Below are positions 2,903-63,875 of a stretch of DNA of 64,000 nucleotides, in pieces. Where the stretch lies: NCBI GenBank assembly GCA_043776915.1, contig JAYVQT010000003.1, positions 26,187 through 90,186 of the forward strand. The letters run 5' to 3'. The DNA comes from Minisyncoccota bacterium. GTDB taxonomy: Bacteria > Patescibacteriota > Minisyncoccia > Phycocordibacterales > UBA9973. Position 1 is the stretch's first letter, and every line of letters starts with the position of its first letter. The notes under the pieces were generated by a model. That model did no database searches and was not told where the DNA came from. It worked only from the letters and a program-made list of their open reading frames with translations. A program made the translations under genes and the position numbers.

Positions 2903-2915
2903 AAATAATTTATTC

Positions 2916-2951
2916 GCCACTTTATCCCACAACACAAATACTCTTCCCCAC
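2916..2951 (-). promoter_or_regulatory. Three direct GTGGG/GTGGC repeats (minus-strand sense) immediately upstream of mraZ; candidate MraZ operator boxes
   Basis: The repeats are the reverse complements of plus-strand 2916-2920 (gccac), 2926-2930 (cccac) and 2947-2951 (cccac). Spacings are 10 and 21 nt, i.e. helical-turn periodicity as for E. coli MraZ boxes. Confidence 0.35.
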
Positions 2952-2981
2952 TCAAACTGTGGATAACAAAATTCCCTATAT

Positions 2982-3009
2982 TTGACATATTTAAATTAAA
3001 TGATATATT
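2982..3009 (+). promoter_or_regulatory. Sigma-70-like promoter P1 (TTGACA, 16-nt spacer, extended -10 TGaTATATT)
   Basis: TTGACA at 2982-2987, TG at 3001-3002, TATATT at 3004-3009. No coding region follows for about 280 nt. Confidence 0.4.
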
Positions 3010-3015
3010 CTAAAA

Positions 3016-3214
3016 TAGATTAATGTCATCATAGTTCTTTTAAAGTGAATATAGGTCTACTAACTATATTCCAGAATTTCAATAGGGCGACACTTGTACC
3101 GAATCACCTTAATGTTCAGGCACATGTAATACTTGTCCCCGAAAAGCTTACGTGAATTGAAATTCACAAAAGAACAGAACCATCCACTTTTAAAAGAGGG
3201 TGGTTTTTATTTTA
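3016..3214 (+). ncRNA. Candidate ~200-nt small RNA between promoter P1 and a hairpin plus U-tract
   Basis: Strong promoter P1, an internal 7-bp palindrome (gtgaatt gaa attcac near 3152-3167) and an imperfect hairpin plus T-run at about 3178-3214. No ORF longer than 30 aa. Identity unknown. Confidence 0.2.
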
Positions 3215-3243
3215 TTGACTTATATATAATTTAATAGTATAAT
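3215..3243 (+). promoter_or_regulatory. Sigma-70-like promoter P2 (TTGACT, 17-nt spacer, TATAAT) for ORF 3293-3595
   Basis: TTGACT at 3215-3220 and TATAAT at 3238-3243. Both are consensus-grade. The ORF start is about 45 nt downstream. Confidence 0.45.
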
Positions 3244-3292
3244 ACTATTAAACATAAACAAAATTTCATCTTTTCACATAAAAAACAAAAAT

Positions 3293-3595
3293 ATGTTACT
3301 CAGAAAAATGTTTAATGATTTAAATAATGTACTATTTGGCCCAATTTATGGACCACATAGATTTAAAACTCTTTACAGTGTTTTAAAAGCATATGATGCA
3401 GATAGACAGGATTTATTTGCTGAAGCTTTAAAAAAAGTAGGGACACTAGAAAAAATAAATAAAAAGCGTCTTAAATTTATTGTAGGTATGTTAAACCAGA
3501 AGTTAGATCTCCTGGTGAAAGAAAGAGAGCAGAAGTCAAAAATATTTACTGAGCTCGAAAACATAGCCATTAAAATGGTAAACGAAATTAAATAA
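3293..3595 (+). CDS. Hypothetical protein (100 aa)
   Basis: ORF with its own consensus promoter and a downstream hairpin terminator. No recognisable motif. Confidence 0.4.
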   Translation: MLLRKMFNDLNNVLFGPIYGPHRFKTLYSVLKAYDADRQDLFAEALKKVGTLEKINKKRLKFIVGMLNQKLDLLVKEREQKSKIFTELENIAIKMVNEIK

Positions 3596-6020: not shown

Positions 6021-7730
6021 CTAGTTCAAGTACTCTGGTGTATATACACTCATATAGTCGACAACTTCACTCATCACTTGTGTAGCATTTCCTGAAGCTA
6101 TTTTCGGCCCTCGTTCCATGAGGACGGCAAATGTGTACTTTGGATTATCATACGGGAAAAACCCCACAATCCATGAGTTCGTATTTGTATTACCAAGGCC
6201 AATTTGGGCTGTACCAGACTTGGCAGCTACTTTAACTGATGCTAAGTTAAGCTTTGTAGCTGTTCCTCCGATTACTGTTTGGCGCATCGCTTCTTGTATA
6301 ACTTTCATTTTCTCTTGGTCAACAGGTATAATTGTCTGGGTTTTTTCAAGTTTTGTATCACCGAGCCTTACATGCGGAGTTGGAATAACTCCGAAGTTTG
6401 CAATACCAGCTACAGCTTTTGCCATTTGAAGTGGACTAACTTGGAATCCATATTGACCAATTGAAGTATTGTATGTATCACCAACTCGCCAGATATCACC
6501 TTTGAATGTTTTAGCTTTCCACTCTGGAGTCGGAATGGTCCCCTCTTTCTCACCACCCATGTCAACTCCAGTTTTTTGAGCAATACCAAACATACGTGTA
6601 TACTTATCAATATTTACAATTCCCAATCCTTTCTGATCCTGGAATCCACCACCAATTTCATAAAAATAAACGTCAGAAGAGATCGCAATTGCTTGCTTCA
6701 TATCGACATAACCGAATGAGCCATGATCTTTGAAGGTTGACTTTTTATCAGGAAAATACGGATTTGGAATAGAGATAGAACCATTTGATAAAATTTGCTT
6801 CAATGGAGAGATTATATCTTCCACAAGTGCACCATAAGCAATAAATGGCTTTACGATCGAGCCCGGTGTATATAGTCCAGCTACAGCTCGGTTAAGAAAA
6901 ACTTTTCGCTTATCAGACAGATACTCAGTAATGGTTTTCTTGTCTTCTCCTTTCGAAATAATATTCGAGTTATATTCCGGATAACTTGTTAATGCTAGTA
7001 ATTCTCCTGTTTTAATATCCATAATAACACCCGCACCACCAGAGAATGATACTCCTTGAGCCATTGATACAATAGAGTCATATAATTTCTTCTGTACACG
7101 ACTATCTATAGAAAGCTTAAGATTTTCGCCCGGCTTTGGTTGAGATACCGTATTCTCAGACTGAATCGCACCACTGACATCTGTCTCAGTAATACGAACA
7201 CCATTTTTACCAGTTAAATTTTCATTATATGATTTCTCAACACCATCTTTACCGATAAAGGCATCTTGCCAGTAATGCCCGGATGAATCTTTTGCTGGCT
7301 GGCTGACGTACCCAAGTAAAAGTCCGAACCCAGAGTCGGAAATATACGCTCTTTCAGGAGCAGAAAATTTATCGAGATCAGTTTTATCCCAGACATTCCA
7401 CGCAAGCACTGTATCTCGACGATCATAGATCATGCCTCTATCAGCAAAAATTGGTTGATTCGTTAAACTATTATTTTGACTTTTTTTATAAAATGTTTCA
7501 CCACGTACTATTTGCAAGCTTTGGAGTTGCCAGACAAATACGAATGCCATGAAGATAAAAAAGAAACCAATAATAAAAATCGAACGCTTTGGAATTGATT
7601 GCTCTAAGCGACCTTCAAACTGCTGAGTGTTAAAATGAGGTAGATTTTTTGAATCCAAGAATATTTCATCTGGATCAATATCTTGCCTGATAGATCGTTT
7701 ATGTAAATTAATATTCATTGTTATATACAA
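6021..7730 (-). CDS. Penicillin-binding protein, class B transpeptidase (PBP2/MrdA-like)
   Basis: N-terminal TM, then SxxK (GSIVKP), SxN (SSD) and KTG-like (KSGTAQ) motifs. It is distinct from the ftsI at the window edge. Confidence 0.75.
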   Translation of the reverse strand: MYITMNINLHKRSIRQDIDPDEIFLDSKNLPHFNTQQFEGRLEQSIPKRSIFIIGFFFIFMAFVFVWQLQSLQIVRGETFYKKSQNNSLTNQPIFADRGMIYDRRDTVLAWNVWDKTDLDKFSAPERAYISDSGFGLLLGYVSQPAKDSSGHYWQDAFIGKDGVEKSYNENLTGKNGVRITETDVSGAIQSENTVSQPKPGENLKLSIDSRVQKKLYDSIVSMAQGVSFSGGAGVIMDIKTGELLALTSYPEYNSNIISKGEDKKTITEYLSDKRKVFLNRAVAGLYTPGSIVKPFIAYGALVEDIISPLKQILSNGSISIPNPYFPDKKSTFKDHGSFGYVDMKQAIAISSDVYFYEIGGGFQDQKGLGIVNIDKYTRMFGIAQKTGVDMGGEKEGTIPTPEWKAKTFKGDIWRVGDTYNTSIGQYGFQVSPLQMAKAVAGIANFGVIPTPHVRLGDTKLEKTQTIIPVDQEKMKVIQEAMRQTVIGGTATKLNLASVKVAAKSGTAQIGLGNTNTNSWIVGFFPYDNPKYTFAVLMERGPKIASGNATQVMSEVVDYMSVYTPEYLN

Positions 7731-30631: not shown

Positions 30632-31243
30632 TTATTTCGAAAACTTCTTAACTGCAAGCCAGACAAGGGCCGCAAGAGCTACCCCAAGAATAATAACTCT
30701 TATAATACTATCCGCGCTGCCCCAGTAGCGCATTGAAGCGATAATTAGTGACAGTACACCACTCCACGAAAAAGCCATGGACAAAAGTGGTAGCCCCACA
30801 AATGCTCCAAGTATGAGGACGATAACGCCGAGAGAAACAAGAATGATGAAAATATTACGATTGTACAATTTCTGTGTAGCATCAAATTTCTTCTGGCAAG
30901 TATAGGTCGCATTACAATAACCCGTCACTTGCGTCTTAGTTGGGGATGAGATTTTAGGCCCTTCGACTGGTACGACTTGCTCACTCCACATACCACCATT
31001 CTCTAAGCACTGACCCTTATTATCATATGCTTTATTTATAATATCAACAGGACAAAACCCCTCAAACGTTGGTTCAGTATAGACAAGTGATGTTGCATAA
31101 TTAAAAAATAAATTTGTCACAATGACAATAGCAACAACCAGTGACCACATAAGTGCTTTTGGCTTCTTTACTTCCTCTCCATGTAGACTATTATTATTTT
31201 CCATAATAATTATAGTATACCAGAATTGTGGTAGAGACGACAA
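30632..31243 (-). CDS. Hypothetical membrane protein
   Basis: N- and C-terminal TM helices flanking a Cys-containing extracytoplasmic segment. Confidence 0.35.
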   Translation of the reverse strand: MSSLPQFWYTIIIMENNNSLHGEEVKKPKALMWSLVVAIVIVTNLFFNYATSLVYTEPTFEGFCPVDIINKAYDNKGQCLENGGMWSEQVVPVEGPKISSPTKTQVTGYCNATYTCQKKFDATQKLYNRNIFIILVSLGVIVLILGAFVGLPLLSMAFSWSGVLSLIIASMRYWGSADSIIRVIILGVALAALVWLAVKKFSK

Positions 31244-50093: not shown

Positions 50094-50121
50094 TGCTATT
50101 ATATCATATATGATATACAAT
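50094..50121 (+). promoter_or_regulatory. Candidate promoter (TTGCTA, 17-nt spacer, TACAAT) for murA, overlapping the murB start region
   Basis: TTGCTA at 50093-50098 and TACAAT at 50116-50121. This places the -10 inside the ORF-track N-terminal extension and supports the 50146 start. Confidence 0.4.
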
Positions 50122-50145
50122 AATCAAATAACAATATATTCAGAT

Positions 50146-51654
50146 ATGAAAAAAACACAAACACAGAAAATAGGCTTCTTTATCAGAGAGTTGCGAGAAA
50201 AGAAAAAGCTGACTCAAGAGGCATTTGCCCAAGAACTTGGCACATCTCAATCAGCTGTCGCCCGAATGGAGAAAGGCGAGCAAAACTTCACTACCGAATT
50301 ACTTTCTAAAATAAGTGGAATACTCGAGCATCAAATTGTATCTATAAATAAATCTATGGATTTTCAAGTAGTTGGTGGTAAGAAATTACACGGCAGTATC
50401 ACGACGACATTTTCCAAAAATGGTTCTGTTGGTTTACTGTGCGCTACACTTTTAAACAAAGGAACCACAACACTCCACGGCATTGCTCGAATCGAAGAAG
50501 TCTATCGTGTGATTGAAATACTCGAAAGTATTGGTGTCGAAATAAAATGGACAGCTCCCAATACCGTCGTCGTCACACCACCCAAAATATTTACACTGAG
50601 TTCACTCAATGTGGAATCAGCAATTAAAACCCGATCAATCATAATGCTGATTGGTCCGTTAATCCATATATTACCTTCATTCTCTATCCCTCACGCTCAA
50701 GGATGCAAGCTCGGCAAGCGCACGATCTCAGCTCATACATACGCACTCGAAGAGCTTGGTGTTAAAATTAAAACCACAAATACTACATATGAAGTACATA
50801 TGACGAAGCTTAAGTCCTCTGATATTATCATGTACGAATCAGGCGACACTGCCTGCGAAAATATCCTCATGGCTGCGTCAAAAATTGAAGGAACCACAAC
50901 TATTGAATGTGCGAGTGGTAACTATATGGTTCAGGAAGTCGGCTTCTTTCTTCAAGCACTCGGCGTAAAAATCGAAGGTATCGGCTCAGGCACGCTTATC
51001 GTTCACGGAGTAAAAGATATACATATAAATCTTGAATACCATAATAGTGAAGACCCTATTGAATCGATGATGTTCATCTCCGCTGCGATAGCAACAGATT
51101 CCGAGCTTACTATACATCGTTGCCCGATAGATTTTCTAACACTTGAACTGTATCGACTCAAGAAAATGGGATTAAAATACAAAGTCCTTAAAAAATACGT
51201 TTCTAGGAATGAAAAAACAAAACTCGTCGATATACAAATTATGCCGAGTATTCTAAAAGCCCCATATGATAAAATTCATGCAAATCCATATCCTGGAATC
51301 AACATCGATAATCTTCCCTTCTTTGTGCCAATCGCTATACGAGCCCAAGGTACAACACTTATTCATGATTGGTTCTATGAGAATCGTGCAATTTATGCGA
51401 CCGAACTCAATAGGCTCGGAGCCAACGTTACTCTCGTCGATGCTCATCGTGTCTATATCACAGGAGGCACACCTCTTACTGCTGCCCAAGTCGTCTGCCC
51501 GCCAGCACTTCGCCCTTCTATGGTTATCCTGATATCAATGCTCGCTGCCGAAGGCACTTCTATACTTCGCAATGTCTATATGATAAAACGAGGCTATGAG
51601 GACGTCGCTGAGCGCTTGAACTCCATCGGTGCAGAGATTACCATACTGAAATAA
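50146..51654 (+). CDS. murA: UDP-N-acetylglucosamine 1-carboxyvinyltransferase (MurA) with N-terminal XRE-type HTH domain fusion
   Basis: Residues ~10-65 form an HTH_XRE-like domain (LRELREKKKLTQEAFAQELGTSQSAVARMEKGEQNFTTELLSKI). The EPT-fold MurA body follows, with the active-site Cys loop AQGCKLGKR. The ORF-track start at 50110 is also possible. Confidence 0.85.
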   Translation: MKKTQTQKIGFFIRELREKKKLTQEAFAQELGTSQSAVARMEKGEQNFTTELLSKISGILEHQIVSINKSMDFQVVGGKKLHGSITTTFSKNGSVGLLCATLLNKGTTTLHGIARIEEVYRVIEILESIGVEIKWTAPNTVVVTPPKIFTLSSLNVESAIKTRSIIMLIGPLIHILPSFSIPHAQGCKLGKRTISAHTYALEELGVKIKTTNTTYEVHMTKLKSSDIIMYESGDTACENILMAASKIEGTTTIECASGNYMVQEVGFFLQALGVKIEGIGSGTLIVHGVKDIHINLEYHNSEDPIESMMFISAAIATDSELTIHRCPIDFLTLELYRLKKMGLKYKVLKKYVSRNEKTKLVDIQIMPSILKAPYDKIHANPYPGINIDNLPFFVPIAIRAQGTTLIHDWFYENRAIYATELNRLGANVTLVDAHRVYITGGTPLTAAQVVCPPALRPSMVILISMLAAEGTSILRNVYMIKRGYEDVAERLNSIGAEITILK

Positions 51655-52542: not shown

Positions 52543-54009
52543 CTATTCAATAATAGTCATGTCTGATGCGGTAAGTCCTTTATCTAAGTCATCATGAGTG
52601 GAAGTTTTCTTACGGAGAAGAATGACACTTGCAATTGCAATAATTATAATAAAAATAAGTCCTATCTCAGTCAACATATTGTTTGATATTTTCACCTTTG
52701 CATTATCAGCGCTTGCCCCGAGAGTATTTAGGTCGATAACTCCGGGTTCTGCCATTTTTATCTTTTCTAGTTGCATCATCTCTTCTGTATTTGGTATTGA
52801 TTGTATTTTATTTTCAACTGATGCGCTGTGCTGTATGGGAACTTTTATTTTCGAAAGAGTCGGAGTAGTCAGTGGATAAAAGGCTGTATTTTCCCTATAT
52901 GGATTTTGAAGTGTAACTGATTTTAAATCTTCTGCTATAAAACCTGTTCGTCGTGGTGAGAATTTTAATTTATTTTTGGGTAACATTATTGTATTACCCG
53001 GAATAGTAAAACTATGAGTAACTCCTTGTACAGTCCAGTTAGAAATATCTATCTCATAGCCGGATTTATTCTCGAGCTCGATATATGGATCGGTCTCAGC
53101 ACCAACAGAGCTAATAGAAATCTCAGGTGAAACAACTTTTATAATCATTCGATCGGTTGCATCGGGGTGACTTACCCAATAATTGGAATAATATGAAAGA
53201 GACAAAACGTAGTCACCGGGATAATCATATGTGTAGGTGAATTCTTTCTGTTCACTAAGAGTAGTTATCATACCGTCACCGAAATTCCAGACAAATTTTC
53301 CTCGTGTGAGTGGCTCTTTACTGAGGCCGAGCGTTTGGGCGTCAACAGTAAAAGACAAACCTGAAAACACAATATTCTTCGAAAGAATATTGGTGGTGAT
53401 TTTTGGTATCTCAACTTCTTTTTTTATGACTGGTTTTATTGACACAGAAGTACTCGCTCCTCCACCTCCAGCAGAAGTCATAGTCACTCCATTAGTACTT
53501 CCTGGTTGATTATCCTTACCAGGAGTAGGAGGAGCGCCTGACCACGATCCATTCAAAAATTGAAGTGAATTCCCATCCCCTGCTGCTCCTTGGCTTGAAG
53601 CAAAGATAACTGAGCTCACAATATTTTGATCAGGATCTTTCAGTGCAATCGTCTCACTATCATTATTAAACCCCGTCCAACTACTATCAAACAAGAGCCC
53701 AGAATAATGTGACCAATCAGCTTTAAATTTGGGAGTATTTTGTGCAATGACTGCATAACCACCAGCCGGTACTTCGGACAATCCTTGTGGTACGAGCGCA
53801 TGCTTAGTATTGTCTGAGAAAAAATACCACTTAGAAAGATCAGCAGGAGCAGTACTTGTATTATGCACTTCAATCCATTCACGATTCGTATCAGTTCCCT
53901 CAAGATCATACATAATCTCTGAAATTTCAAAGCTCGCTACTACCAAATGAGGCAACAAGAAAAGGACTAGTAGTAAAGCCAGATGTAGTTTTATTATTTT
54001 CTGAGACAT
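52543..54009 (-). CDS. Cell-surface protein with lamin-tail domain (LTD) and C-terminal TM anchor
   Basis: Signal peptide, LTD signature EIMYDLEGTDTNREWIEVHN and a C-terminal hydrophobic helix. Confidence 0.65.
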   Translation of the reverse strand: MSQKIIKLHLALLLVLFLLPHLVVASFEISEIMYDLEGTDTNREWIEVHNTSTAPADLSKWYFFSDNTKHALVPQGLSEVPAGGYAVIAQNTPKFKADWSHYSGLLFDSSWTGFNNDSETIALKDPDQNIVSSVIFASSQGAAGDGNSLQFLNGSWSGAPPTPGKDNQPGSTNGVTMTSAGGGGASTSVSIKPVIKKEVEIPKITTNILSKNIVFSGLSFTVDAQTLGLSKEPLTRGKFVWNFGDGMITTLSEQKEFTYTYDYPGDYVLSLSYYSNYWVSHPDATDRMIIKVVSPEISISSVGAETDPYIELENKSGYEIDISNWTVQGVTHSFTIPGNTIMLPKNKLKFSPRRTGFIAEDLKSVTLQNPYRENTAFYPLTTPTLSKIKVPIQHSASVENKIQSIPNTEEMMQLEKIKMAEPGVIDLNTLGASADNAKVKISNNMLTEIGLIFIIIIAIASVILLRKKTSTHDDLDKGLTASDMTIIE

Positions 54010-54021
54010 AGAGTGAGGATA

Positions 54022-56322
54022 TTATTCTAGTACTTTGAGTAATACTTCTTCAGGAACCTCTTTTCCGGCCACACGTTTCTGCCATTGACTACGTGGGATA
54101 TTTTGATTAGATTGATTCGTTTGTACAGAAGGACGTGATACTGCCTCCGGTTCAGATTTTGTTTCTACCGGATCAGGTTTCGGCATTGTAACTGATACGT
54201 TGGTATGAACCGTCACATTATGAATTGGCGTCGGCGCCACTGCTTCTGGTTCTGGTTCTGGAATCGGAATTGCCAGGCGCGTAACTGGAATTTCAACTTT
54301 TAGTGGAACTGGTTCTACGGCCGGTACGGGATGAGCTATTGCTTTCATTAAAAGTTCTTTCAGTGATGCTTTCTTATCTTCGGATGCTTCTTTAGTTGGA
54401 AGATGTATCGCGGTAGTATGATGAGACTTTTTTAATGTCGAAAGAGATACTGGAACAGCTGTAGCAGCTTTGACTGGAATTGCCTGTGGTGAAATTTTCG
54501 GCGCTGACTTTTTATGATCATCTTCAATTTTTTCAAGTAAACCTTTTAAAAGTGGCGATGGACCTACATGCTTACGCTCAACTGGCGTATACGTTGGACG
54601 ATTATTTTGTATTGATGCTCGTGGAGCCGAAGAATTGGTAGTTTTATTTTGTGTTTGCGGCAAAGGATTTAGGGGTACTGAACGCGGAGAACTTGTTGGA
54701 TATTTTTGCTGAATTTGTTGGATAGGTTGAGCGTCTCTGATCGGTCGCTGCGATAGAGCGCTCGGGGCTTTTGCTCCAGTATCAGCAAATTCAATACCAA
54801 GCATTGCAAGCGGTGCAGTTGAATTCTTTTCATCTTGGCGAGCTGAACGCGTAGCCACAAAGCCAGTCTGAGGCTTGAGCTCTCCGCTCTTAATCTTAAA
54901 CATACAATCTTTACAATAGACTGGTCGGCCCTCTTTCGGCTCGAATGGCACCATGGTTACTTTACCGCAGTTTGAGCAGTCAGCTTTAAACTTCGCCGCT
55001 TCATCACCAACTTGGAGCATACCGCTCCACTTTGATATTTCATTTTCAACTTCTTCACGGGGTCGAGCATAAAGCGAACGTGACATATCTATAATCTTTT
55101 CTTTGACTCCAGCTGATGGATCAATCGTCATCGGTGGAAGAGTGCTTGCCGAGAATGGTCGACTGGTTACGCCGTCAATCATGAGCTTCAAGTAGACGTG
55201 GTAGTTCGGCAAATTCACTAAGTCTTGCGCCGTAAACTCAGGCTCAAATTCTTTCTCAATAAATTCGGCATCATCGGCACCAACGCGGAAGATAACCATC
55301 GTGCCGACGTTACCAAAAACAGCATCACGGACTGCTGTACCATTTTCATTCGATAGTTGAGCTGTATACTGGTGAGCAATAATTAAATTGAGGCGATACT
55401 TACGAGCCTCAGAGAGAATGTTGGCAAATGAATCGGTCGCGAAGTTCTGGAATTCGTCAACATAGAGATAGAAATCTTTACGCTCATCTTCGGGAATACG
55501 CACGCGCTCCATGGCGGCGAGCTGAATTTTCGTAATAATCATACCTCCAAGAAGTGCTGAGTTATCTTCACCGACGCGCCCTTTTGAAACGTTCACGAGA
55601 AATATCTTCCCTTCGTTCATGATTTTAAATATATCAATCGTCGACTTTGACTGCCCGACAACATTACGAATAATAGATGTTGAGAGGAATTGGCCAACTT
55701 TGTTCTGAATTGGGGCAATGGCTTCATTACGGAATTGCTCACGCCACTGCTCGTACTCATGAACCCAGAAAGCTTTGACCACTGGATCTTTCAAGTTGCC
55801 GATAATCATCTGGCGATAATCTTTGTCGACAAGCAGACGCGGAATACCAAGGAGTGTCGTACCAGGAGTGTCGAGAAGTGCTAAGATAGCATTATTGAGA
55901 ATGTACTCCATACGAGAACTCCAGGCATTGGCCCAAATCTTTGTAAAAATTCCCATCAATCCTGAAGCGACCAAGTGCTTATACTTTGGATCATCGAGCG
56001 CAATGACATTGAATCCGACATTAAAATCAACATCAGCAGGATTAAAGTAGATGACATCTTTGGCACGATGATCAGGAATCAGATGAAGAATTTCTTCCAC
56101 AAGCTCACCGTGCGGATCCACCACACAAACACCCTCGCCATTATTGATATTCTGAACAATCAGATTTGAAAGGAGGACTGACTTACCTGTACCTGACTTT
56201 CCAAGTACATACATATGCTGACGACGATCGCGTCTCTTGATCCCAAAGGCATTCTTGGTGTTACGAAAATTCGTCCGACCGAAGTAAGTGATGTCTCGAT
56301 TTTGTGGGATATCGTTGTTCAT
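54022..56322 (-). CDS. VirD4/TraG-like (type IV coupling protein-like) P-loop ATPase lacking N-terminal TM, with long disordered C-terminal tail containing a CxxC...CxxC zinc ribbon
   Basis: Walker A VLGKSGTGKS and Walker B plus downstream YLYVDEFQNF...NLIIAHQYTAQL, which match the T4CP family pattern. Paralog of 62397-63875. Tail of about 330 aa rich in P/S/T/K. Confidence 0.6.
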   Translation of the reverse strand: MNNDIPQNRDITYFGRTNFRNTKNAFGIKRRDRRQHMYVLGKSGTGKSVLLSNLIVQNINNGEGVCVVDPHGELVEEILHLIPDHRAKDVIYFNPADVDFNVGFNVIALDDPKYKHLVASGLMGIFTKIWANAWSSRMEYILNNAILALLDTPGTTLLGIPRLLVDKDYRQMIIGNLKDPVVKAFWVHEYEQWREQFRNEAIAPIQNKVGQFLSTSIIRNVVGQSKSTIDIFKIMNEGKIFLVNVSKGRVGEDNSALLGGMIITKIQLAAMERVRIPEDERKDFYLYVDEFQNFATDSFANILSEARKYRLNLIIAHQYTAQLSNENGTAVRDAVFGNVGTMVIFRVGADDAEFIEKEFEPEFTAQDLVNLPNYHVYLKLMIDGVTSRPFSASTLPPMTIDPSAGVKEKIIDMSRSLYARPREEVENEISKWSGMLQVGDEAAKFKADCSNCGKVTMVPFEPKEGRPVYCKDCMFKIKSGELKPQTGFVATRSARQDEKNSTAPLAMLGIEFADTGAKAPSALSQRPIRDAQPIQQIQQKYPTSSPRSVPLNPLPQTQNKTTNSSAPRASIQNNRPTYTPVERKHVGPSPLLKGLLEKIEDDHKKSAPKISPQAIPVKAATAVPVSLSTLKKSHHTTAIHLPTKEASEDKKASLKELLMKAIAHPVPAVEPVPLKVEIPVTRLAIPIPEPEPEAVAPTPIHNVTVHTNVSVTMPKPDPVETKSEPEAVSRPSVQTNQSNQNIPRSQWQKRVAGKEVPEEVLLKVLE

Positions 56323-57569: not shown

Positions 57570-57950
57570 TTAATTCACTTCCTGCTGATAACACGACTCG
57601 CAATACACAATATCAGGTCGGTCAGATGCATAGGAGGTCTCGAATTTTTTTTGACATATACCTGAATGCTCATGGTTTTCCTGTGTACACATACATGAAC
57701 GATTAAATAGATTTCTCTCGGGTCTAAATTTAATACGTTTCTCGTAACGACAGTTGGGGCAAAAACGTGGAATAGGAATAACGTGCTCTCTATAGAATTT
57801 CAATTCTTCAGATACAATATTGTAATTCCGCTCACAACCTATACATTTTAGTACCTCACTGGTAATACTATCACTAATATCAAGAATACTATCAATTACA
57901 TTTTCTGGTGCTATGGTTTCTTTTCCTTTTCTTACGGGTATATCATCTTG
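57570..57950 (-). pseudogene. C-terminal portion of a split Cys-rich modular protein gene: in frame with upstream CDS 57951-59261, separated only by a single TAG
   Basis: The 126 codons after the TAG stop of 57951-59261 translate to QDDIPVRKGKETIAPENVIDSILDISDSITSEVLKCIGCERNYNIVSEELKFYREHVIPIPRFCPNCRYEKR...CESCYQQEVN, which is colinear with the C-terminus of paralog 59736-61454. There is no in-frame ATG. The ORF-track 77-aa call begins at a TTG. Confidence 0.5.
57613..57703. repeat. 91-nt segment with 1 mismatch to 59779-59869 (3' ends of the Cys-rich paralog genes)
   Basis: Direct comparison shows 90/91 identical. Flanks are more diverged. Confidence 0.8.
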
Positions 57951-59261
57951 CTATGTAAATCCTCCAGCAAGGGCTTGTTCTTTTGAAAGTGGCATAAATA
58001 TTTGGCCTTGTGTTTCGTTATATCCAAAAGGAGAAAGTAGTGAAGGAAAAAATTCGCCATATTCAGATGTTTTTTTCATATGTTCAATTAATTTATTTTT
58101 GAGTAACTCATACTCATCTTTTTCGTACGGTCTATTTAAAATACAATAATTTGATTTTTTTAACCCAACACAACCAAAAAGATTTTGAGAATTATGGCAT
58201 GAATCACAATATTCAATAAAAATATCGTCCCATGAAAGATGCGAGAACTTAGTATAGGATGAATTAGACATTGCATGAGATTCATAAATCATCATCCCTA
58301 TGCCTACACTAAATATATCCATAGCGTCTTTCACTTCTGCAGTTGCTACTGAATACTTAATAGTATCAGAAGCAAAGATATCAAAATCATTATGACAATT
58401 CTTTGAATTATATATTACATCACCAGAAACATTTACAGACCTTTCTATTTGACCATAGCGATGCAACGCGTTAGTTTTTAACATTTCTTTCCATTGAGCA
58501 TATAGACTACTTCTTGTTTGGAAAGAATCTAAGTTGTATTTTTCCATACGTACCATATATTCTTCTTTTGTGTATTGCGTATTTAAAATACAGTATTTTT
58601 TATTACGCAAATTATATGACATAAAGCAATCTGAACAATTTCTACAATCGTAACAGTATGAGCAATTTATAGAATCATGTGTCAGGAGACAAAACTGACA
58701 ATTATAATCTCTATCGCAAGAAATACATTCATAAAGGAAGGTTCCCTTATCGATAATCATATTGCAATCACATGATTCACTTACATGATTCCAACAATTA
58801 CTTGAATAAAGAACATTCTCACTATTAAAAACATCAAAGCATAAATAACAATTTTTGTTATCTTGGGAATGATTAGTGTATTCACTTTGTATTGAATTTT
58901 TAGATAATAATGCAACACGAGGAACTTTTAATTGTAACTCTAAAAACTGCTCAAAAAATGGGCGAGAAAAATCTATTTCTTGTGCAAAATCTTTTGCATC
59001 CCAACTATCACCCCACCAACAAGCTGAACAATACACTTTAAACGGAGACAGAGGATTATAAATAGTGACAGTTGATTTAGTACATAAATCACAATTCCTT
59101 CGATATAAAGTCCTTTCATTACGCCAAGAATAGCGACGGCGTTGCCTGCAGTCCGGGCAAAATGTCGGTGGTGGTACCTTCATCTTCTCGTAAAAACCGA
59201 AGTCATCCGGTTCGATTGTGAAGTCTTTTTTGCAGTTTTGGCAGGTTTTTGTTTCTTGCAT
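57951..59261 (-). CDS. Cys-rich modular protein (N-terminal zinc ribbon plus internal tandem CxxC-type repeats); N-terminal 436-aa part of a gene split by an in-frame TAG
   Basis: N-terminal CQNCKKDFTIEPDDFGFYEKMKVPPPTFCPDCR. Repeats such as NCWNHVSESCDCN, ECISCDRDYNCQFC and CSYCYDCRNCSDC. The N-terminus is near-identical to paralog 59736-61454. Confidence 0.55.
   Translation of the reverse strand: MQETKTCQNCKKDFTIEPDDFGFYEKMKVPPPTFCPDCRQRRRYSWRNERTLYRRNCDLCTKSTVTIYNPLSPFKVYCSACWWGDSWDAKDFAQEIDFSRPFFEQFLELQLKVPRVALLSKNSIQSEYTNHSQDNKNCYLCFDVFNSENVLYSSNCWNHVSESCDCNMIIDKGTFLYECISCDRDYNCQFCLLTHDSINCSYCYDCRNCSDCFMSYNLRNKKYCILNTQYTKEEYMVRMEKYNLDSFQTRSSLYAQWKEMLKTNALHRYGQIERSVNVSGDVIYNSKNCHNDFDIFASDTIKYSVATAEVKDAMDIFSVGIGMMIYESHAMSNSSYTKFSHLSWDDIFIEYCDSCHNSQNLFGCVGLKKSNYCILNRPYEKDEYELLKNKLIEHMKKTSEYGEFFPSLLSPFGYNETQGQIFMPLSKEQALAGGFT
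59164..59244. repeat. 81-nt segment identical to 61360-61440 (5' ends of the two Cys-rich paralog genes)
   Basis: Character-by-character comparison shows 81/81 identical. Confidence 0.85.
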
Positions 59262-59318
59262 AAAATTATGTGTATGATATACTTTAGTAGTAAATGCTTC
59301 TCTTGTCAGAAGCTCCGA

Positions 59319-59345
59319 GAAAACCCCGAAAGGGGTTTTTGTTTT
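59319..59345. terminator. Hairpin terminator gaaaacccc gaaa ggggttttt
   Basis: 9-bp stem immediately downstream (on the minus strand) of the MazF-like gene stop. Confidence 0.5.
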
Positions 59346-59721
59346 ATATTATAAGACGTATCTTTTCTTTTAATCTATTTAATTCAGTTGATTCTACCTT
59401 TCCTACAAAACGTAGCAATCTTTTAGCATCAAATAATCGTACTTGCGAAAGTATAACGGTAGATCTATGAAATGATTCTAATGTAAAATAATATTTACCA
59501 ATCTTCGGCTGGCTCGTCAGAGGCACACCCATAAATATATGGTTGTTAAATTTTCTGGTAATCAAAACAGGTCTTTCAAAATTCTTATTTTTTCCATCTT
59601 CTTCATCTCCAATATTTTTACCCATATGTAAAAACCACACTTCTCCTTTACCAAAGAAAATTCTCTCATTCATTGAAATTTTCTTTTTTAAACTATTCCA
59701 TATGTCAAAATCTTCTTTCAT
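59344..59721 (-). CDS. PemK/MazF-like toxin-fold protein (putative)
   Basis: GEVWFLHMGKNIGDEEDGKNKNFERPVLITRKF...FMGVPLTSQPK resembles the MazF/PemK pattern (G.vw.v.f....G.E..k.RPvlv....VvPlTs). Start set at the internal Met to avoid overlap with the upstream gene. Confidence 0.45.
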   Translation of the reverse strand: MKEDFDIWNSLKKKISMNERIFFGKGEVWFLHMGKNIGDEEDGKNKNFERPVLITRKFNNHIFMGVPLTSQPKIGKYYFTLESFHRSTVILSQVRLFDAKRLLRFVGKVESTELNRLKEKIRLII

Positions 59722-59735
59722 ATTCAAATTATAAT

Positions 59736-61454
59736 CTAATTCACCTCTTTTTGATAACAACTTTCGCAATAAATAATTTCAGGTCGGTCAGATGCATAGG
59801 AGGTCTCGAATTTGTTTTGACATATACCTGAATGCTCATGGTTTTCCTGTGTACACATACATGAACGATGGAAAAGTTTTGGTTGATTTATAAATTGTAG
59901 GCGATTAAGAAATCTACAATTATGACAAGTATGAGGAAGTGGTAATCCTACACGTTGATAAAACTGCAACTCTGCTGGTATGATACGATATGCACGTTTA
60001 CAATTCTCACACGCAATTACTTCTTTTGTAATATCATCAGAAACATCTTGCAACAAATCAGGTACACCTGAACCATCTAATGTTGTCTGAAATTCTTTTG
60101 CACTTGGTTCACGCCATGTAAACCCTTGATCAAGGGCTTCTTCTTTACGTATTGGTACATAATCTTGTGCCAAACTCTCATTGTAAGCCAAAGGTGAAAA
60201 AGAAAATGGGAAAAAGTCGCCATATGTATACACTCTCCCTTGTTCATCGACATACGGCATATCTTTCATATGTTGTATTATTTTAGGAACAAGTATTTCG
60301 TATTCTTCTTTTGAATATTGTTTATTTAAAATACAATATTTATTCTTCTTCATACTTACACATCCAAAACAATATGACGTACCAAAACAATACCCACAAT
60401 ACTCTATCTCACGAACATTACCGAATGAATTAAAACAACATTTTAGTCCATATGCTCCATCTCCACAAGTCATACACTCGTATGCATTTTCTATATTCAT
60501 AAAAAGCTGACAGGAGTCATATGAATTTGCTGCTTTTAATACACTAATCTGTACATATCGTAGATTCTCGCCATTTTCAACAGAAAAGGAATCACGTACA
60601 TTTTTTGAATCACTAATTCTATCACCGGTACAATTAAGATTTCGCGTACCATGATAATATTTAACTGGGAACTGTTGCCAAAACTCCAAAACTTTTTCTC
60701 GAATATGCACGATGGATTGGTATGAAGATAGATTCATCTCAAATATCCTTCTCTCATATTCTTCTTTAGAAAGTGGTTCATTGAAAAAATAGTATGATTT
60801 ACCACGAAGATTTACACACCCGAAACAATTCGTACAACCACGAAGTCCTTTACTAAACCACACATCTACACAACTTTCACAATCAACAGAAAAGAACGTC
60901 TGGTACGACTTATATACCATGACACATTCGTAGCACAATTCATCATCTATTAATTCATGAGAATCAAATGAATTTTTTACATTAGTAACTTTTACAAGAT
61001 ACGCCGAGTCTTCGATAAAATCTGCATCGAAACACAAATATGCATTTTTAAGTCTCCCTGCCTCATTGCAGTAGTCAGAATTAATCATAAACCCAGCAGA
61101 AGACTTTGCCATAATAGGTACTCTCTTAAACAATTCCAAAAATTGCTCAAAAAACGGCCGTGAAAAATCATACTCTACACCATACTCTAACGCATCCCAC
61201 TCATCACTATACCAATATGTTGTTTCGTATGTTTGTATTGATGATTCAGGAGGAATACCTGAAAATGAATCCTTCCCAGTATGAGCATCTGTTCTACGAA
61301 AAAGATTACGTTCGTTTCTCCATGCTAATCGACGTACCATCCGACACTCTGGACACCACGTCGGTGGTGGTACCTTCATCTTCTCGTAAAAACCGAAGTC
61401 ATCCGGTTCGATTGTGAAGTCTTTTTTGCAGTTTTGGCAGTTGCGGGTTTCCAT
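59736..61454 (-). CDS. Cys-rich modular protein, intact 572-aa paralog (zinc-ribbon module at both ends, internal CxxC repeats, duplicated KYCILN.QYSKEEYE segments)
   Basis: N-terminal CQNCKKDFTIEPDDFGFYEKMKVPPPTWCPECR and C-terminal CENCKRAYRIIPAELQFYQRVGLPLPHTCHNCR...SCMCTQENHEHSGICQ...CESCYQKEVN. Confidence 0.6.
   Translation of the reverse strand: METRNCQNCKKDFTIEPDDFGFYEKMKVPPPTWCPECRMVRRLAWRNERNLFRRTDAHTGKDSFSGIPPESSIQTYETTYWYSDEWDALEYGVEYDFSRPFFEQFLELFKRVPIMAKSSAGFMINSDYCNEAGRLKNAYLCFDADFIEDSAYLVKVTNVKNSFDSHELIDDELCYECVMVYKSYQTFFSVDCESCVDVWFSKGLRGCTNCFGCVNLRGKSYYFFNEPLSKEEYERRIFEMNLSSYQSIVHIREKVLEFWQQFPVKYYHGTRNLNCTGDRISDSKNVRDSFSVENGENLRYVQISVLKAANSYDSCQLFMNIENAYECMTCGDGAYGLKCCFNSFGNVREIEYCGYCFGTSYCFGCVSMKKNKYCILNKQYSKEEYEILVPKIIQHMKDMPYVDEQGRVYTYGDFFPFSFSPLAYNESLAQDYVPIRKEEALDQGFTWREPSAKEFQTTLDGSGVPDLLQDVSDDITKEVIACENCKRAYRIIPAELQFYQRVGLPLPHTCHNCRFLNRLQFINQPKLFHRSCMCTQENHEHSGICQNKFETSYASDRPEIIYCESCYQKEVN
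59779..59869. repeat. 91-nt segment with 1 mismatch to 57613-57703
   Basis: See partner copy. Confidence 0.8.
61360..61440. repeat. 81-nt segment identical to 59164-59244
   Basis: See partner copy. Confidence 0.85.
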
Positions 61455-61455
61455 A

Positions 61456-61941
61456 TTATTTAATCAATTGAGTAAACTGATCGAGTTGTCGACTTTTAAT
61501 AGTACTTTGTATAAAACCAAGGGTTGTTTGTAATTCTTTAATGGTATTTTGGTTTGATTCTGCGAGACGTTTTTGATTCAATACATACCCTTTGATTACA
61601 TAGTGGCGAAGCGTTTTTGTAGCCCATTGTCGAAAAATAATTGCCTTGCTTGAATTTGTTTTATATCCCACAGCCAGAACAACATCCAGAGAATATAGTG
61701 AAACTGGTTTATCTGAATTTGCAATGTGCATTTTTTGCACATTGTTTTTTGTATCAACTTCTTTTGATCTCAAGAGATTATGTATATGTTTAGTGATAAC
61801 TGAACGCTCAATGCCAAAAAGCTGAGCAATTTGGATTTGTGTTGCCCAAATAGTTTCCTTTGAAATATCAGCGTGAAATTCGATATTCCCTTTTTTGTCT
61901 TTATAGATAGCGAGGTTATTTTTTAAATCATTTTTAGTCAT
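61456..61941 (-). CDS. RhuM-family protein (virulence-protein RhuM / Fic-DOC-associated family)
   Basis: KGNIEFHADISKETIWATQIQIAQLFGIERSVITKHIHNL matches the RhuM family N-terminal core. Confidence 0.55.
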   Translation of the reverse strand: MTKNDLKNNLAIYKDKKGNIEFHADISKETIWATQIQIAQLFGIERSVITKHIHNLLRSKEVDTKNNVQKMHIANSDKPVSLYSLDVVLAVGYKTNSSKAIIFRQWATKTLRHYVIKGYVLNQKRLAESNQNTIKELQTTLGFIQSTIKSRQLDQFTQLIK

Positions 61942-62369
61942 ATGGATTTTGTGTTGAGCAGTGATGAATGGTGTGTATCTGGCTTGTACGGCGTGCCGAT
62001 TTTAATTTCTACATTTTTGATAATTTCTTTTTTAATTGCTTTTTTAATATTAGACAGGAGTGATGCTTGATCATAGCCAAGAAATAGTAAAGATGGGTTG
62101 ACTTCTTTGAGGGTATTATACGAACCTTCATCGAGGTCGCCAAGAAGCACACGATCGATCTCGGGAACTTGTAAAAGACTTTCAATACGGGATGCTTCAG
62201 TATAAATTGGTATTTTGCCTTTTAACTTTTCTACCATACTATCACGTGCCACAATAGCTACGAGATGTTCCCCTTGAGCTTTTGCTTCTTTAATAAATTC
62301 ACGATGACCATCATGAATCCCATCAAACACTCCAAAAATTATAACGGTTCGCGATTTCATAAAATTCAA
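61938..62369 (-). CDS. Small cytidylyltransferase-like nucleotidyltransferase (HxGH motif; TagD/RibL/FAD-synthetase-like)
   Basis: FGVFDGIHDGHREFIKEAK is a nucleotidyltransferase (H/T)xGH signature; 143 aa. Confidence 0.6.
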   Translation of the reverse strand: MNFMKSRTVIIFGVFDGIHDGHREFIKEAKAQGEHLVAIVARDSMVEKLKGKIPIYTEASRIESLLQVPEIDRVLLGDLDEGSYNTLKEVNPSLLFLGYDQASLLSNIKKAIKKEIIKNVEIKIGTPYKPDTHHSSLLNTKSI

Positions 62370-62396
62370 TGTATTATTATAATTGGTAATCAGTAA

Positions 62397-63875
62397 TTAA
62401 ATAAGGGGTTCACTGTTTTTTTCTTCTATGGCTACTAGATTTGTAAATTCATCGTTTGTCGAATTAGTATTTCGAGTAATGGCCGCTTTCTCTTGAGCTG
62501 AGCGAATAATGGTCGACTCTTCTTCGGCAATGAGCTTCTGAGCTTCACCGGCTGGAATAGCGTACTGGCGACGAGAAGCTTCGATAATGCGTGTACGATA
62601 TGAGGGGTGAGTTGCTGGAAGCACACGCAATGTCTCCGCTGAGAATGGGTCATAGCTTTCACCATCAATCGTCATCTTAATATAAAATTCTCCCACTCCA
62701 AGATTGATCATATCTTTGACATCAAAGATCGGTGCGAACTCTGGCTTGAGCTTGACTGCATCGTCACCACCGACACGGAATGAGATAATCGAACCAATGT
62801 TTCCAAGTACTGCTTGCTGAACTTTCGGCAAAAGCTGACCGACATACTGGTGAGCTACAATCAGATTCAGTCCATACTTACGGGCCTCTGACAAAATATT
62901 CTCAAACGTATCAGTCACGATGTTCTGGAACTCATCGACGTACAAATAAAAGTCAGCACGATCTTTCGGCTCAAGCTTGGCGCGTGCCATACCGGCTTGC
63001 TTGATCTTAGTCAAGAACATGGCTCCAAAGAACGATGAATTCTCTTCACCAATTTTTCCTTTCGAGAGATTGATGAGCAAAATTTTCTGTTGATTCATGA
63101 GCACTTCGATATCAATCTTATTCTGCTTCTGGCCGAAAATATTACGGAGCATCGGATCAGACAAGAATTGCCCGAGCTTGTTTACAAGCGGAATGATCGC
63201 ATCAGTATCGAACTTCTCGGACCAGTCGGCGAATTCGATAGCCCAGAATCGTTTGACCATGTCGTCCTCAATATACTCGACAACTTTCTGACGATAGTTA
63301 CGGTCGGTCAGCATAGAGATCATACCGCGCATCGTCGCGTATGGATAGTCGAGAAGCGCAAGGACGGTGAAGCGAAAGACGTGCTCCAAGCGTGGCGTCC
63401 AGTTTGCACCGAACTGCTTACGCAACACTTCGATTAAGCCTTGGGTTAGTTGGTGCTTAAATGTCGGGTCAATATTAGCAAGTGGATTAAATGATGACGG
63501 AAAGTCAACATCACCCGGATCAATAATGCAGACGTCATTAATACGATCTTCGGGAATAAAATTCAAGATGTCATCGATCAGTTCACCATGAGGATCAATA
63601 ATACAAACACCTTGACCGTATGCAATATCTTGACGAATCATCAACTCTTGGAGTTTCGATTTACCTACGCCAGACTTACCGATAATATACATGTGTCGTC
63701 TACGATCAACACGCTTGATACCAAAAACGAATTTCTTTTCTTCAAGTGAAGCTACGTAATTCGTCCGACCGATAAAGCAGACTTCGGCAGGATCAGACTG
63801 ACCAAGAGTTGGTAAATCTGGTGGAGGTGGAGCGTACTTTATGATTTGAATTTTATTTGGTTTGTTGAGCGCCAT
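62397..63875 (-). CDS. VirD4/TraG-like (T4CP-like) P-loop ATPase, paralog of 54022-56322, lacking the C-terminal tail
   Basis: IIGKSGVGKS Walker A and YLYVDEFQNIVTDTFENILSEARKYGLNLIVAHQYVGQL. High identity blocks with the other copy throughout the ATPase core. Confidence 0.6.
   Translation of the reverse strand: MALNKPNKIQIIKYAPPPPDLPTLGQSDPAEVCFIGRTNYVASLEEKKFVFGIKRVDRRRHMYIIGKSGVGKSKLQELMIRQDIAYGQGVCIIDPHGELIDDILNFIPEDRINDVCIIDPGDVDFPSSFNPLANIDPTFKHQLTQGLIEVLRKQFGANWTPRLEHVFRFTVLALLDYPYATMRGMISMLTDRNYRQKVVEYIEDDMVKRFWAIEFADWSEKFDTDAIIPLVNKLGQFLSDPMLRNIFGQKQNKIDIEVLMNQQKILLINLSKGKIGEENSSFFGAMFLTKIKQAGMARAKLEPKDRADFYLYVDEFQNIVTDTFENILSEARKYGLNLIVAHQYVGQLLPKVQQAVLGNIGSIISFRVGGDDAVKLKPEFAPIFDVKDMINLGVGEFYIKMTIDGESYDPFSAETLRVLPATHPSYRTRIIEASRRQYAIPAGEAQKLIAEEESTIIRSAQEKAAITRNTNSTNDEFTNLVAIEEKNSEPLI

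Follow-up and report, generated by a model that had tools for sequence, protein, structure and literature searches.

The stretch of DNA considered here (the window, 64,000 nucleotides in its full length) is taken from contig JAYVQT010000003.1 of the Minisyncoccota bacterium assembly GCA_043776915.1 (positions 26,187 to 90,186, forward strand), and the analysis centres on a run of five co-directional minus-strand open reading frames (ORFs) within it (Table 1). In order of their reading, these encode a VirD4/TraD-like P-loop ATPase (ATPase492), a small HxGH nucleotidyltransferase (NTase), a RhuM-like protein, a Cys-rich protein of 572 amino acids (aa), and a MazF/PemK-family endoribonuclease. 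An earlier interpretation made from the letters alone (the sequence-only reading) took the five genes for a tightly packed operon closed by a terminator, and proposed that they constitute a defence or addiction module. All five ORFs were present where it had placed them, the spacings that it gave (27 nt, a 4-nt overlap, 1 nt and 14 nt) were correct with the NTase counted from a TTG start and mazF from ATG, and its five family calls held on a Pfam scan, the Cys-rich protein being without a Pfam family. Overlooked were a paralogue each of the Cys-rich protein and the ATPase farther downstream on the same strand, the better T-tail of the closing hairpin on the plus strand, and the correspondence of the RhuM-like ORF to only the N-terminal half of its family. 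The region is now read, with a probability of roughly two in three, as a mosaic of three layers rather than one system: a backbone locus of paired ATPases and Cys-rich proteins, a truncated RhuM gene, and a cassette composed of mazF and the gene of a convergent small RNA (sRNA).

Related loci were collected in two surveys, one anchored on the Cys-rich family (the best 80 of at least 549 confirmed loci, with one genome per species scanned) and the other on MazF (80 loci). For the former, each locus was taken with flanks of 10 kb, and the window proteins were compared by BLAST with its six-frame ORFs. That the five genes form a single multi-component anti-phage or addiction system, with the zinc ribbon of the Cys-rich protein replacing the antitoxin, is favored by their tight co-directional packing, by the match of the RhuM-like ORF to the PADLOC candidates PDC-S05/S23 (E 1e-40 or better) and the weak match of the ATPase to mad8/HerA, and by an occurrence of MazF and RhuM near arrays of Cys-rich genes that is above chance (15/80 MazF-anchored loci), with one locus (L091) having the order Cys-rich, RhuM, MazF. 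However, the five families were never encountered together (0/160 loci), the nearest syntenic genomes possess neither MazF nor RhuM, MazF has no fixed place with respect to the array (it may precede the array, lie within it, or come ahead of the gene of a second ATPase, ATPase766), and most MazF homologues reside in unrelated operons. The zinc-ribbon C-terminus suggested as a stand-in antitoxin does not vary across a family with thousands of members, of which almost none has a MazF neighbor, the RhuM-like gene is truncated, and the NTase looks like a cofactor enzyme. A PADLOC scan revealed no complete described system, but only the single-gene candidates and the generic ATPase similarity already mentioned; the Cys-rich protein, the NTase and MazF were all unmatched in PADLOC-DB v2. 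Because of the co-occurrence counts, the five-gene system is largely refuted, and it is considered highly improbable. Tight co-directional packing in the streamlined genomes of the candidate phyla radiation is no proof of a functional operon.

Table 1. Positions of the genes and predicted elements in the window.
Feature	Position	Strand	Remarks
ATPase492, soluble VirD4/TraD-like P-loop ATPase, first bracket	62397-63875	-	492 aa; Pfam
NTase, small HxGH nucleotidyltransferase, cytidylyltransferase-like	61938-62369	-	143 aa, TTG start; Pfam CTP_transf_like 3e-13
RhuM-like, N-terminal half, truncated accessory gene	61456-61941	-	161 aa; Pfam Virulence_RhuM 3e-19
Cys-rich protein, terminal zinc-ribbon/treble-clef domains flanking two Cys-rich modules	59736-61454	-	572 aa; modules model as beta-solenoid
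Candidate mazF promoter, TTATCA-18-TATAAT	59728-59757	-	consensus scan, 10/12 matches; ends 7 nt before ATG
MazF/PemK-family endoribonuclease, N-terminal helix with DFDxWNxxKK	59344-59721	-	125 aa; PemK_toxin 3e-10
Predicted ~55-nt sRNA convergent to mazF	59290-59345	+	covariance model R1
Predicted sRNA promoter	59256-59283	+	-35 TTGCAT 59256-59261; extended -10 TG-A-TATACT 59275-59283
Parts of the predicted sRNA	start near 59290; hairpin A 59296-59313; hairpin T 59319-59340	+	5' GUAAAUG; linker UCCGAGA between the hairpins; GAAA loop in hairpin T
U-tail of the predicted sRNA	abuts mazF stop codon 59344-59346	+	
Second Cys-rich paralogue	57570-59261	-	563 codons, one in-frame TAG
DUF2214 membrane protein and small hydrolase			downstream on the same strand
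ATPase766, second soluble VirD4/TraD-like ATPase, second bracket	54022-56322	-	
Lamin-tail (LTD)/PKD protein	52543-54009		follows ATPase766 on the same strand, then methyltransferase

Paired ATPases bracket arrays of Cys-rich proteins

Comparative genomics shows the backbone layer of the mosaic to be a chromosomal locus, conserved across the Paceibacteria (Patescibacteria), with Cys-rich genes (products of ~570 aa) in a co-directional tandem array and a soluble ATPase on either side, the two ATPases being paralogues. In the window, this backbone spans 63875 down to ~52500, and so extends beyond the five genes of the sequence-only reading. Throughout the 80 Cys-rich-anchored loci, 284/284 ORFs of the Cys-rich family and 57/58 ATPase ORFs were co-directional, 64 of the loci held 2-11 Cys-rich copies with 30-50% identity among the paralogues, and the ATPases were typically located at both array ends. 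At least one of the two ATPases was found in 37 of the 80 loci and both in 21; for the 34 loci longer than 20 kb, these values were 22 and 18, respectively. A homologue of ATPase492 was counted beside arrays in 36/80 loci and ATPase766 in 37/80, the latter usually with an LTD/PKD protein and a methyltransferase next to it. The NTase, often next after the first ATPase, was present in 9 of the 80 array loci, compared to 4 for MazF and 2 for RhuM. In the nearest relatives (L002 and L003, at 80% and 77% identity, respectively), the gene order is ATPase492-NTase-Cys-Cys-Cys-DUF2214-ATPase766-LTD/PKD-methyltransferase. Arrays of 2 to 11 or more paralogues are exemplified by L038, L075 and L022 among L001-L080. 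The commonest other ORF in or next to the arrays encodes a protein of ~102 aa, identified by eye from its sequence as CutA1-like, a type associated with divalent-cation tolerance (16/80 loci; e.g., L038 854-1180). The window has no such ORF. A connection with metals is hinted at by this CutA1-like protein in combination with DUF2214 and the richness in Cys.

Both ATPases, which are 44% identical to each other, were found to contain the nucleotide-binding domain of type IV coupling proteins (T4CPs): each scored above the Pfam gathering thresholds for TrwB_AAD_bind, T4SS-DNA_transf and TraG-D_C, and ATPase492 also for DUF87. With the NCBIfam equivalogs, scores for the ATPases were all far under the cut-offs (e.g., 50 vs. 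366 bits), and no N-terminal transmembrane anchor was detected in either protein (maximal 19-residue Kyte-Doolittle values of 1.03 and 1.23). The 90%-identity cluster of ATPase492 comprises 71 members named as type IV secretion system (T4SS) DNA-binding/TraD domain proteins. Of linkage to VirB4, mating-pair formation or relaxase genes there was no sign among the 40 window ORFs scanned, which were housekeeping only. ATPase766 carries in addition a C-terminal CxxC-x17-CxxC treble-clef finger (Pfam zf_Tbcl_2, TIGR04272), and its residues ~445-766 consist of this finger followed by a low-complexity tail of ~290 aa rich in Pro, Gln, Ser and Thr. A survey of 2,918 Patescibacteria genomes reported 5,713 VirD4-like proteins, of which 148 were near virB4, and its authors suggested exaptation of the orphan VirD4-like proteins for another function (PMC12102498). 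The two window ATPases are like these orphan T4CP homologues in their T4CP Pfam domains; they differ in that the survey names no partner, whereas the Paceibacteria proteins bracket Cys-rich arrays and are without a transmembrane anchor.

The Cys-rich proteins constitute a very large and uniformly built family that has been without any annotation. For the 572-aa protein, which possesses 33 Cys residues and 12 CxxC motifs, no Pfam, NCBIfam or PADLOC model was matched, while the family was found to number at least 7980 relatives among 90% clusters. At 50% identity and a limit of E 1e-3 there were 4699 clusters, the length being 550-600 aa in almost all of them. Both termini bear near-identical zinc-ribbon/treble-clef and basic-helix motifs, and only for these termini did a Pfam search at E up to 10 return sub-threshold zinc-ribbon/treble-clef matches; that of the N-terminus is to zf_Tbcl, a model related to the zf_Tbcl_2 model of the ATPase766 finger. 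A profile search of Protein Data Bank (PDB) sequences gave marginal LIM-finger matches only, the Cys-rich core of the AlphaFold2 (AF2) model has a weak resemblance to beta-solenoids, and no relative of the family was found among IMG/VR viral contigs.

The second Cys-rich copy in the window is 41% identical to the 572-aa protein. The two ORFs listed there as 436 aa and 77 aa are one paralogue of 563 codons, read in a single frame across a TAG (57951-57953) at the codon of a nearly invariant Trp447 (TGG to TAG), which could reflect a recent nonsense mutation and a pseudogene, a sequencing error, or read-through. The best relatives of this paralogue (57% identity) were found in Staskawiczbacteria arrays, not in the syntenic genomes, and this distribution, therefore, suggests an exchange between arrays.

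The NTase has the HxGH nucleotidyltransferase fold, as seen by its scores for CTP_transf_like (50.6 bits) and TIGR00125 (52.8 bits vs. a 27.7 cut-off) and by its FDGIHDGH motif, and its best solved relative is a 143-aa Thermoplasma protein (3GLV; E 3e-18). Its sequence is presumed to resemble that of the archaeal FAD synthetase RibL; if RibL-like, the NTase would serve in cofactor synthesis and not in signalling. The RhuM-like ORF, the second layer of the mosaic, matched only positions 9-76 of the 252 of the Virulence_RhuM profile (PF13310), and it aligned to residues 29-181 of a 355-aa homologue, the C-terminal half being absent. Since the alignment stops at the N-terminal half, the ORF is not the full-length, two-part RhuM of ~330 aa but a truncated and sporadic insert in the backbone; full-length RhuM copies do occur inside arrays in three loci (L024, L037 and L091).

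The pairing of ATPases with Cys-rich arrays is a more novel lead than the mazF cassette. As a guess at its function, the Cys-rich proteins could be the substrates or the working partners of the ATPases, and the two might constitute an undescribed, lineage-wide machine for loading, translocating or remodelling a diversified cargo in the service of an episymbiotic lifestyle. If true, such a machine would explain the task of the exapted T4CPs. The locus provides the first genomic partner for the approximately two orphan T4CP-like ATPases per Patescibacteria genome, the role of which was left open by the 2025 survey, and it brings the Cys-rich family to notice.

The MazF-family protein and a convergent RNA element

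The third layer of the mosaic begins with the 125-aa protein, for which the sequence-only reading had allowed that assignment to a non-toxin family would tell against it. It is a bona fide member of the MazF family: it scored 40.6 bits with PemK_toxin (PF02452; cut-off of 23.1), the 50 best PDB matches to its AF2 model (predicted local distance difference test, pLDDT, of 82) were all MazF toxins with a probability of 1.00 and TM values of 0.6-0.67, and the catalytic residues of E. coli (R29/T52) and B. subtilis (R25/T48) MazF correspond to R50/T69, which are invariant in an alignment of 20 homologues with these two reference proteins. The clade to which it belongs is distinguished by an extra N-terminal helix (DFDxWNxxKK) and a 5-residue insert, neither of which is present in classical MazF. 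The protein is soluble, with a maximal 19-aa hydropathy of 0.74, and is thus not a small hydrophobic membrane peptide of the kind found as toxins in type I systems. Homologues of 194 aa with a conserved N-terminal extension of 68 aa were also observed (P0203, P0214, P0225; L105 4849-5433, L115 3195-3779), and these keep the convergent sRNA described below (76-78 bits).

The sequence-only reading was right that a small antitoxin gene is lacking beside mazF, there being 14 nt upstream of it and 82 nt downstream. A gene for a MazE/PemI, AbrB or ribbon-helix-helix (RHH) antitoxin, as would be expected adjacent to a type II toxin, was not found there, and when every ORF lying up to 700 nt from MazF in 93 loci was clustered, no conserved protein partner emerged. 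Apparent families of small ORFs beside mazF proved to be translations of a conserved RNA element and not antitoxins. Only the gene of the convergent sRNA travels with the MazF homologues, which were found directly after rpoC (12 loci), after a ribosome hibernation factor (HPF), and before genes encoding Cys-rich proteins, ATPases, and polA-, murC- and pyrG-like products. The mazF gene with its convergent sRNA gene is a self-contained cassette of ~0.5 kb found in many unrelated gene contexts. In one Patescibacterium locus (L084), MazF paralogues (2834-3298 and 7001-7381) flank rpoC within an rpoB-rpoC-dnaG-sigma70 string, each followed by an antisense match to the sRNA (29.8 and 84.2 bits). A -10 box was recognized 5-9 nt before the ATG in 28 of 67 MazF loci, compared to 35 of 181 starts of Cys-rich genes, weak evidence that the mazF transcript is possibly leaderless.

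Directly 3' of the mazF stop codon, a conserved non-coding element was found in nearly all loci. Its consensus, read on the strand opposite mazF, consists of TTGACA, a spacer of 16-17 nt and usually TGn-TATACT, followed after ~7 nt by GUAAAUG, a 6-bp hairpin (loop CUUGUC) and, beyond the linker UCCGAGA, a second hairpin that is GC-rich and has a GNRA loop; a U-rich tail ends at the mazF stop. With a stringent test for promoters (-35 with at most one mismatch, spacer of 16-18, and TAnnnT with at most two mismatches), an antisense promoter was detected in 49 of 69 non-redundant MazF loci, whereas the mazF strand passed in 9 of 69 and random windows of 130 nt in 2.5% of cases; 32 of these antisense promoters had an exact TTGACA, 27 had TATACT and 37 the extended TG, and their position was fixed at 50-65 nt from the mazF stop. 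Among 104 tetraloops, the antisense strand provided 51 GNRA and 26 UNCG loops and the mazF strand one, and two loci (L087 and L110) contain G.U pairs that would be mismatches if read on the mazF strand. Covariation was observed on both sides of 13 of 15 pairs with 99.2% of cells paired, values approached by none of 500 shuffles and by no slid register, in an alignment that was fitted to the covariance model, a procedure that favors the result somewhat.

A covariance model (R1) built from 14 sequences gave a single full match in the 64-kb window (59289-59344, plus strand; 79.5 bits), where the fold of the sRNA has a z-score of -4.1. In the MazF-anchored loci, the model returned 33 matches with E <1e-6, all antisense and abutting the MazF stop, including those of second paralogues in L084 and L092, whereas among 1.31 Mb of Cys-array loci the best match (E 0.09) adjoins the MazF of L040, with four weaker ones at E 0.37-0.48. 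No matching family was found in Rfam. The hairpin that the sequence-only reading took as the terminator of the operon does exist, and it is the 3' hairpin of the sRNA: the T-tail is TTTTTGTTTTAT on the plus strand and TTTTCTCGG on the minus strand, and a consensus scan scored the terminator on the plus strand. A hairpin that appears to be a terminator can thus belong to a gene on the opposite strand. The element would appear, from these patterns of sequence conservation, to be an RNA gene on the strand opposite mazF and tied exclusively to this subfamily of MazF. Two other candidates were rejected. An antisense small ORF starting from the AUG of GUAAAUG fails in that the AUG is missing from about a third of the divergent loci (CGTTTGT variants) and compensatory changes in the stems result in non-conservative amino acid changes; an IS200/605-like (TTAC...TCAA) or attC-like element fails in that family members do not consistently keep the corresponding motifs.

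Read on the other strand, the sRNA -35 box (ATGTCAAG or ATGCAAG) also supplies the start codon of the downstream gene (MSS... or MQ...), both in the window (59256-59261, where the CAT of TTGCAT is complementary to that codon) and in L064, L081, L092, L105, L120, L153, L157, L164, L090 and L171, the genes concerned encoding Cys-rich, polA-, murC- and pyrG-like proteins and, in Nitratiruptor, an RHH-like ORF. The cassette thus abuts host start codons precisely. This boundary is an argument for viewing the element as acting in cis, either as a 3'-untranslated stabilizer or terminator of mazF or as a DNA site for the recombination or insertion that mobilizes the cassette, because a distal end (ATGTCAAG) falling on the start of whichever gene comes next suggests site-specific insertion; the window hairpins, moreover, fold equally on both strands. 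The strand bias of the near-consensus promoters and that of the tetraloops (77 vs. 1), as well as the G.U pairs, argue for an RNA instead, as do the mapped transcription start site (TSS) and the Northern-verified sRNA of the pVir homologue described below. Neither repeats nor target duplications nor linkage to a transposase were found at the cassette, and a role purely in cis or as DNA is regarded as improbable.

The reading of the element as a convergent sRNA gene has a precedent among the Campylobacterota. By tblastn, the same MazF subfamily was found on plasmid pVir of Campylobacter jejuni 81-176, on Nitratiruptor and Helicobacter plasmids, and in Campylobacter prophages. The pVir protein (CJJ81176_pVir0047, PemK/MazF family; 30634-31038) has 38.6% identity and the same N-terminal FDxWNxxKK motif. 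A convergent promoter predicted from its sequence (TTGATT-17-TG-A-TATAAT, with a start near 31117) is within 2 nt of a TSS mapped at 31119 on the minus strand, the height of which was 16164, compared to 28 for the TSS of the toxin itself (Dugar et al., 2013; PMC3656092, Tables S5 and S12). Such asymmetry between a strong RNA promoter and a weak toxin promoter is a classical signature of toxin-antitoxin (TA) systems. CJpv3, a Northern-verified sRNA of 77 nt, occupies 31119-31043 between pVir0047 and pVir0048 (PMC3656092), and its 3' end lies 5 nt from the pVir0047 stop codon. The two systems share the MazF subfamily, a convergent RNA close to the stop codon, an extended -10 (TG-A-TATAAT), hairpins, and the absence of an annotated protein antitoxin; they differ in that the RNAs cannot be aligned, CJpv3 having 77 nt and three hairpins vs. 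~55 nt and two here, and in that CJpv3 is plasmid-borne in the Campylobacterota whereas the Patescibacteria sRNA is chromosomal. Model R1 found nothing at the Campylobacter or Nitratiruptor homologues, and their likeness is judged by architecture only; the Nitratiruptor plasmid homologue has the two-hairpin layout with a TTGCAT -35 and an AUAAAU 5' end. No tie of CJpv3 to MazF was found in the literature consulted. A pVir RNA named cjrA is listed in a secondary source as an experimentally validated type I antitoxin (PMC7826846); possibly, the cjrA/cjpT pair (Shen et al., 2016) corresponds to CJpv3/pVir0047. On the Nitratiruptor plasmid, a 62-aa ORF of RHH-like appearance (MQDKRMTQKTIRVEDDLWDKFKKIAKYKDS...; L171 1055-1243) is positioned directly after the MazF-sRNA unit, and it could encode a protein regulator or antitoxin in that lineage.

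mazF and its sRNA gene as a probable toxin-antitoxin cassette

Together, mazF and its sRNA gene most likely form a two-part TA cassette. In such a cassette, MazF would cut RNA at specific sequences, and its gene would be weakly expressed, either by a promoter of its own or through transcription from upstream, while the sRNA would be produced from its near-consensus promoter and would end at the hairpin that is common to the 3' end of the mazF transcript. Neutralization might then proceed by either of two routes: the sRNA may base-pair with the 3' part of the mazF transcript to which it is complementary (the shared hairpin or the 3' untranslated region), in the manner of type I systems with 3' overlap, or the toxin itself may be bound by the single-stranded GUAAAUG, CUUGUC and UCCGAGA motifs, in the manner of type III systems. 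Once the labile RNA was lost, the toxin would be set free. Given that these motifs are conserved across covarying stems, direct binding of MazF by the RNA is suggested, and the combination of conserved single-stranded motifs with a strongly conserved structure hints that the RNA does more than pair and also contacts the protein.

In its logic the cassette varies on known TA systems, and its precedent has received little notice. With the type II systems MazEF and PemIK, it shares the toxin fold, the catalytic Arg and Thr, and the character of a small, autonomous and mobile module; it departs from them in that MazE/PemI or any other conserved protein partner is missing, the toxin is extended by an N-terminal helix, and the partner is encoded by a convergent RNA gene. 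Among type I systems, antitoxin RNAs that converge on the toxin gene and overlap its 3' end are exemplified by txpA/RatA and bsrG/SR4 of B. subtilis and RNAI/RNAII of the E. faecalis par locus. The cassette resembles these in its convergent toxin and sRNA genes, common bidirectional terminator hairpin and strong sRNA promoter, but their toxins are small hydrophobic peptides whereas here it is a soluble RNase of 125 aa. Layout, promoter, strand-specific loops and covariation are compatible with an antitoxin RNA of type I, with transcription known from the C. jejuni homologue only. The type III systems ToxIN, CptIN and TenpIN likewise combine a Kid/MazF-like endoribonuclease toxin with a structured RNA antitoxin, but their antitoxins are tandem repeats located upstream on the same strand and processed by the toxin. 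Around mazF no tandem repeats were found; the element is single-copy, downstream and convergent.

The sRNA may also be real without being an antitoxin, in that a domesticated RNase could process the RNA or be guided by it, or the RNA could regulate the downstream gene or targets in trans. Toxicity may be controllable otherwise, e.g., by the N-terminal helix of the clade, which is conserved along with the 5-residue insert; the presence of cassettes inside essential operons such as rpoBC would be odd for a poison; and the sRNA promoter overlaps the start codon of the next gene, with no complementarity of the sRNA to the 5' region of mazF. Nevertheless, the catalytic residues are intact, homologues reside on plasmids and prophages, as is typical of addiction modules, the promoters on pVir are markedly asymmetric (16164 vs. 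28 reads), and pVir is listed as encoding a validated type I antitoxin, cjrA, which is possibly the RNA in question. This alternative is considered rather unlikely.

A number of observations weigh against the mosaic with its MazF-sRNA TA cassette. The sRNA of the window is predicted, its transcription having been seen in the C. jejuni homologue only, and that it neutralizes MazF is what we infer; a comparison with the 5' region of mazF uncovered no extra complementarity (mean z of 0.25). The -35 box in the window is weak (TTGCAT), with the promoter resting on its extended -10, ~20 of the 69 loci fail the stringent promoter test, and the 3' hairpin of divergent relatives has no U-tail on either strand. 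With regard to the backbone, the AF2 model of the Cys-rich protein has a pLDDT of 72 and its Cys-rich core is of low confidence. Finally, the metagenome loci counted above, in which a MazF anchor is near a Cys-rich gene or an ATPase766/ATPase gene, are to be compared with array genes that account for an estimated ~1% of the genome (the authors' own figure); 15 of 80 is, therefore, well above chance, and some functional link between MazF and the array is still conceivable.

Taken more broadly, a clade of MazF across the Patescibacteria and Campylobacterota would be controlled by a convergent structured RNA instead of MazE, with its cassettes inserting exactly at the start codons of host genes. 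That this RNA-controlled clade, the lineage-wide ATPase/Cys-rich machine, or both exist is a tentative proposal, considered less likely than not. If true, the former would mean that the archetypal type II toxin has a branch with RNA antitoxins, one that is absent from Rfam and from the defence and TA catalogues. MazF is the textbook toxin of protein-antitoxin (type II) systems, and an RNA-carrying clade would blur the boundaries among types I, II and III; 'orphan' MazF genes in genome surveys would then not be orphans. With no fewer than 50 covarying members, the element itself is ready to be entered as an RNA family in Rfam and in finders of TA and defence systems.

The remainder of the window is ordinary chromosome, encoding Mur ligases, a penicillin-binding protein, MurJ, aminoacyl-tRNA synthetases, LepA and YchF. 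Judged by the names of homologues, the DNA comes from a Nomurabacteria-like member of the Patescibacteria/Paceibacteria. The G+C content is 0.32 at positions 58001-60000, which hold mazF and the second Cys-rich gene, vs. 0.36-0.41 elsewhere in the window, a difference consistent with a foreign origin of this segment. At 50110-51654 on the plus strand, an unusual fusion was noted in which a MurA-like enzyme of the EPSP_synthase fold bears an N-terminal Xre-type helix-turn-helix (residues 22-72).

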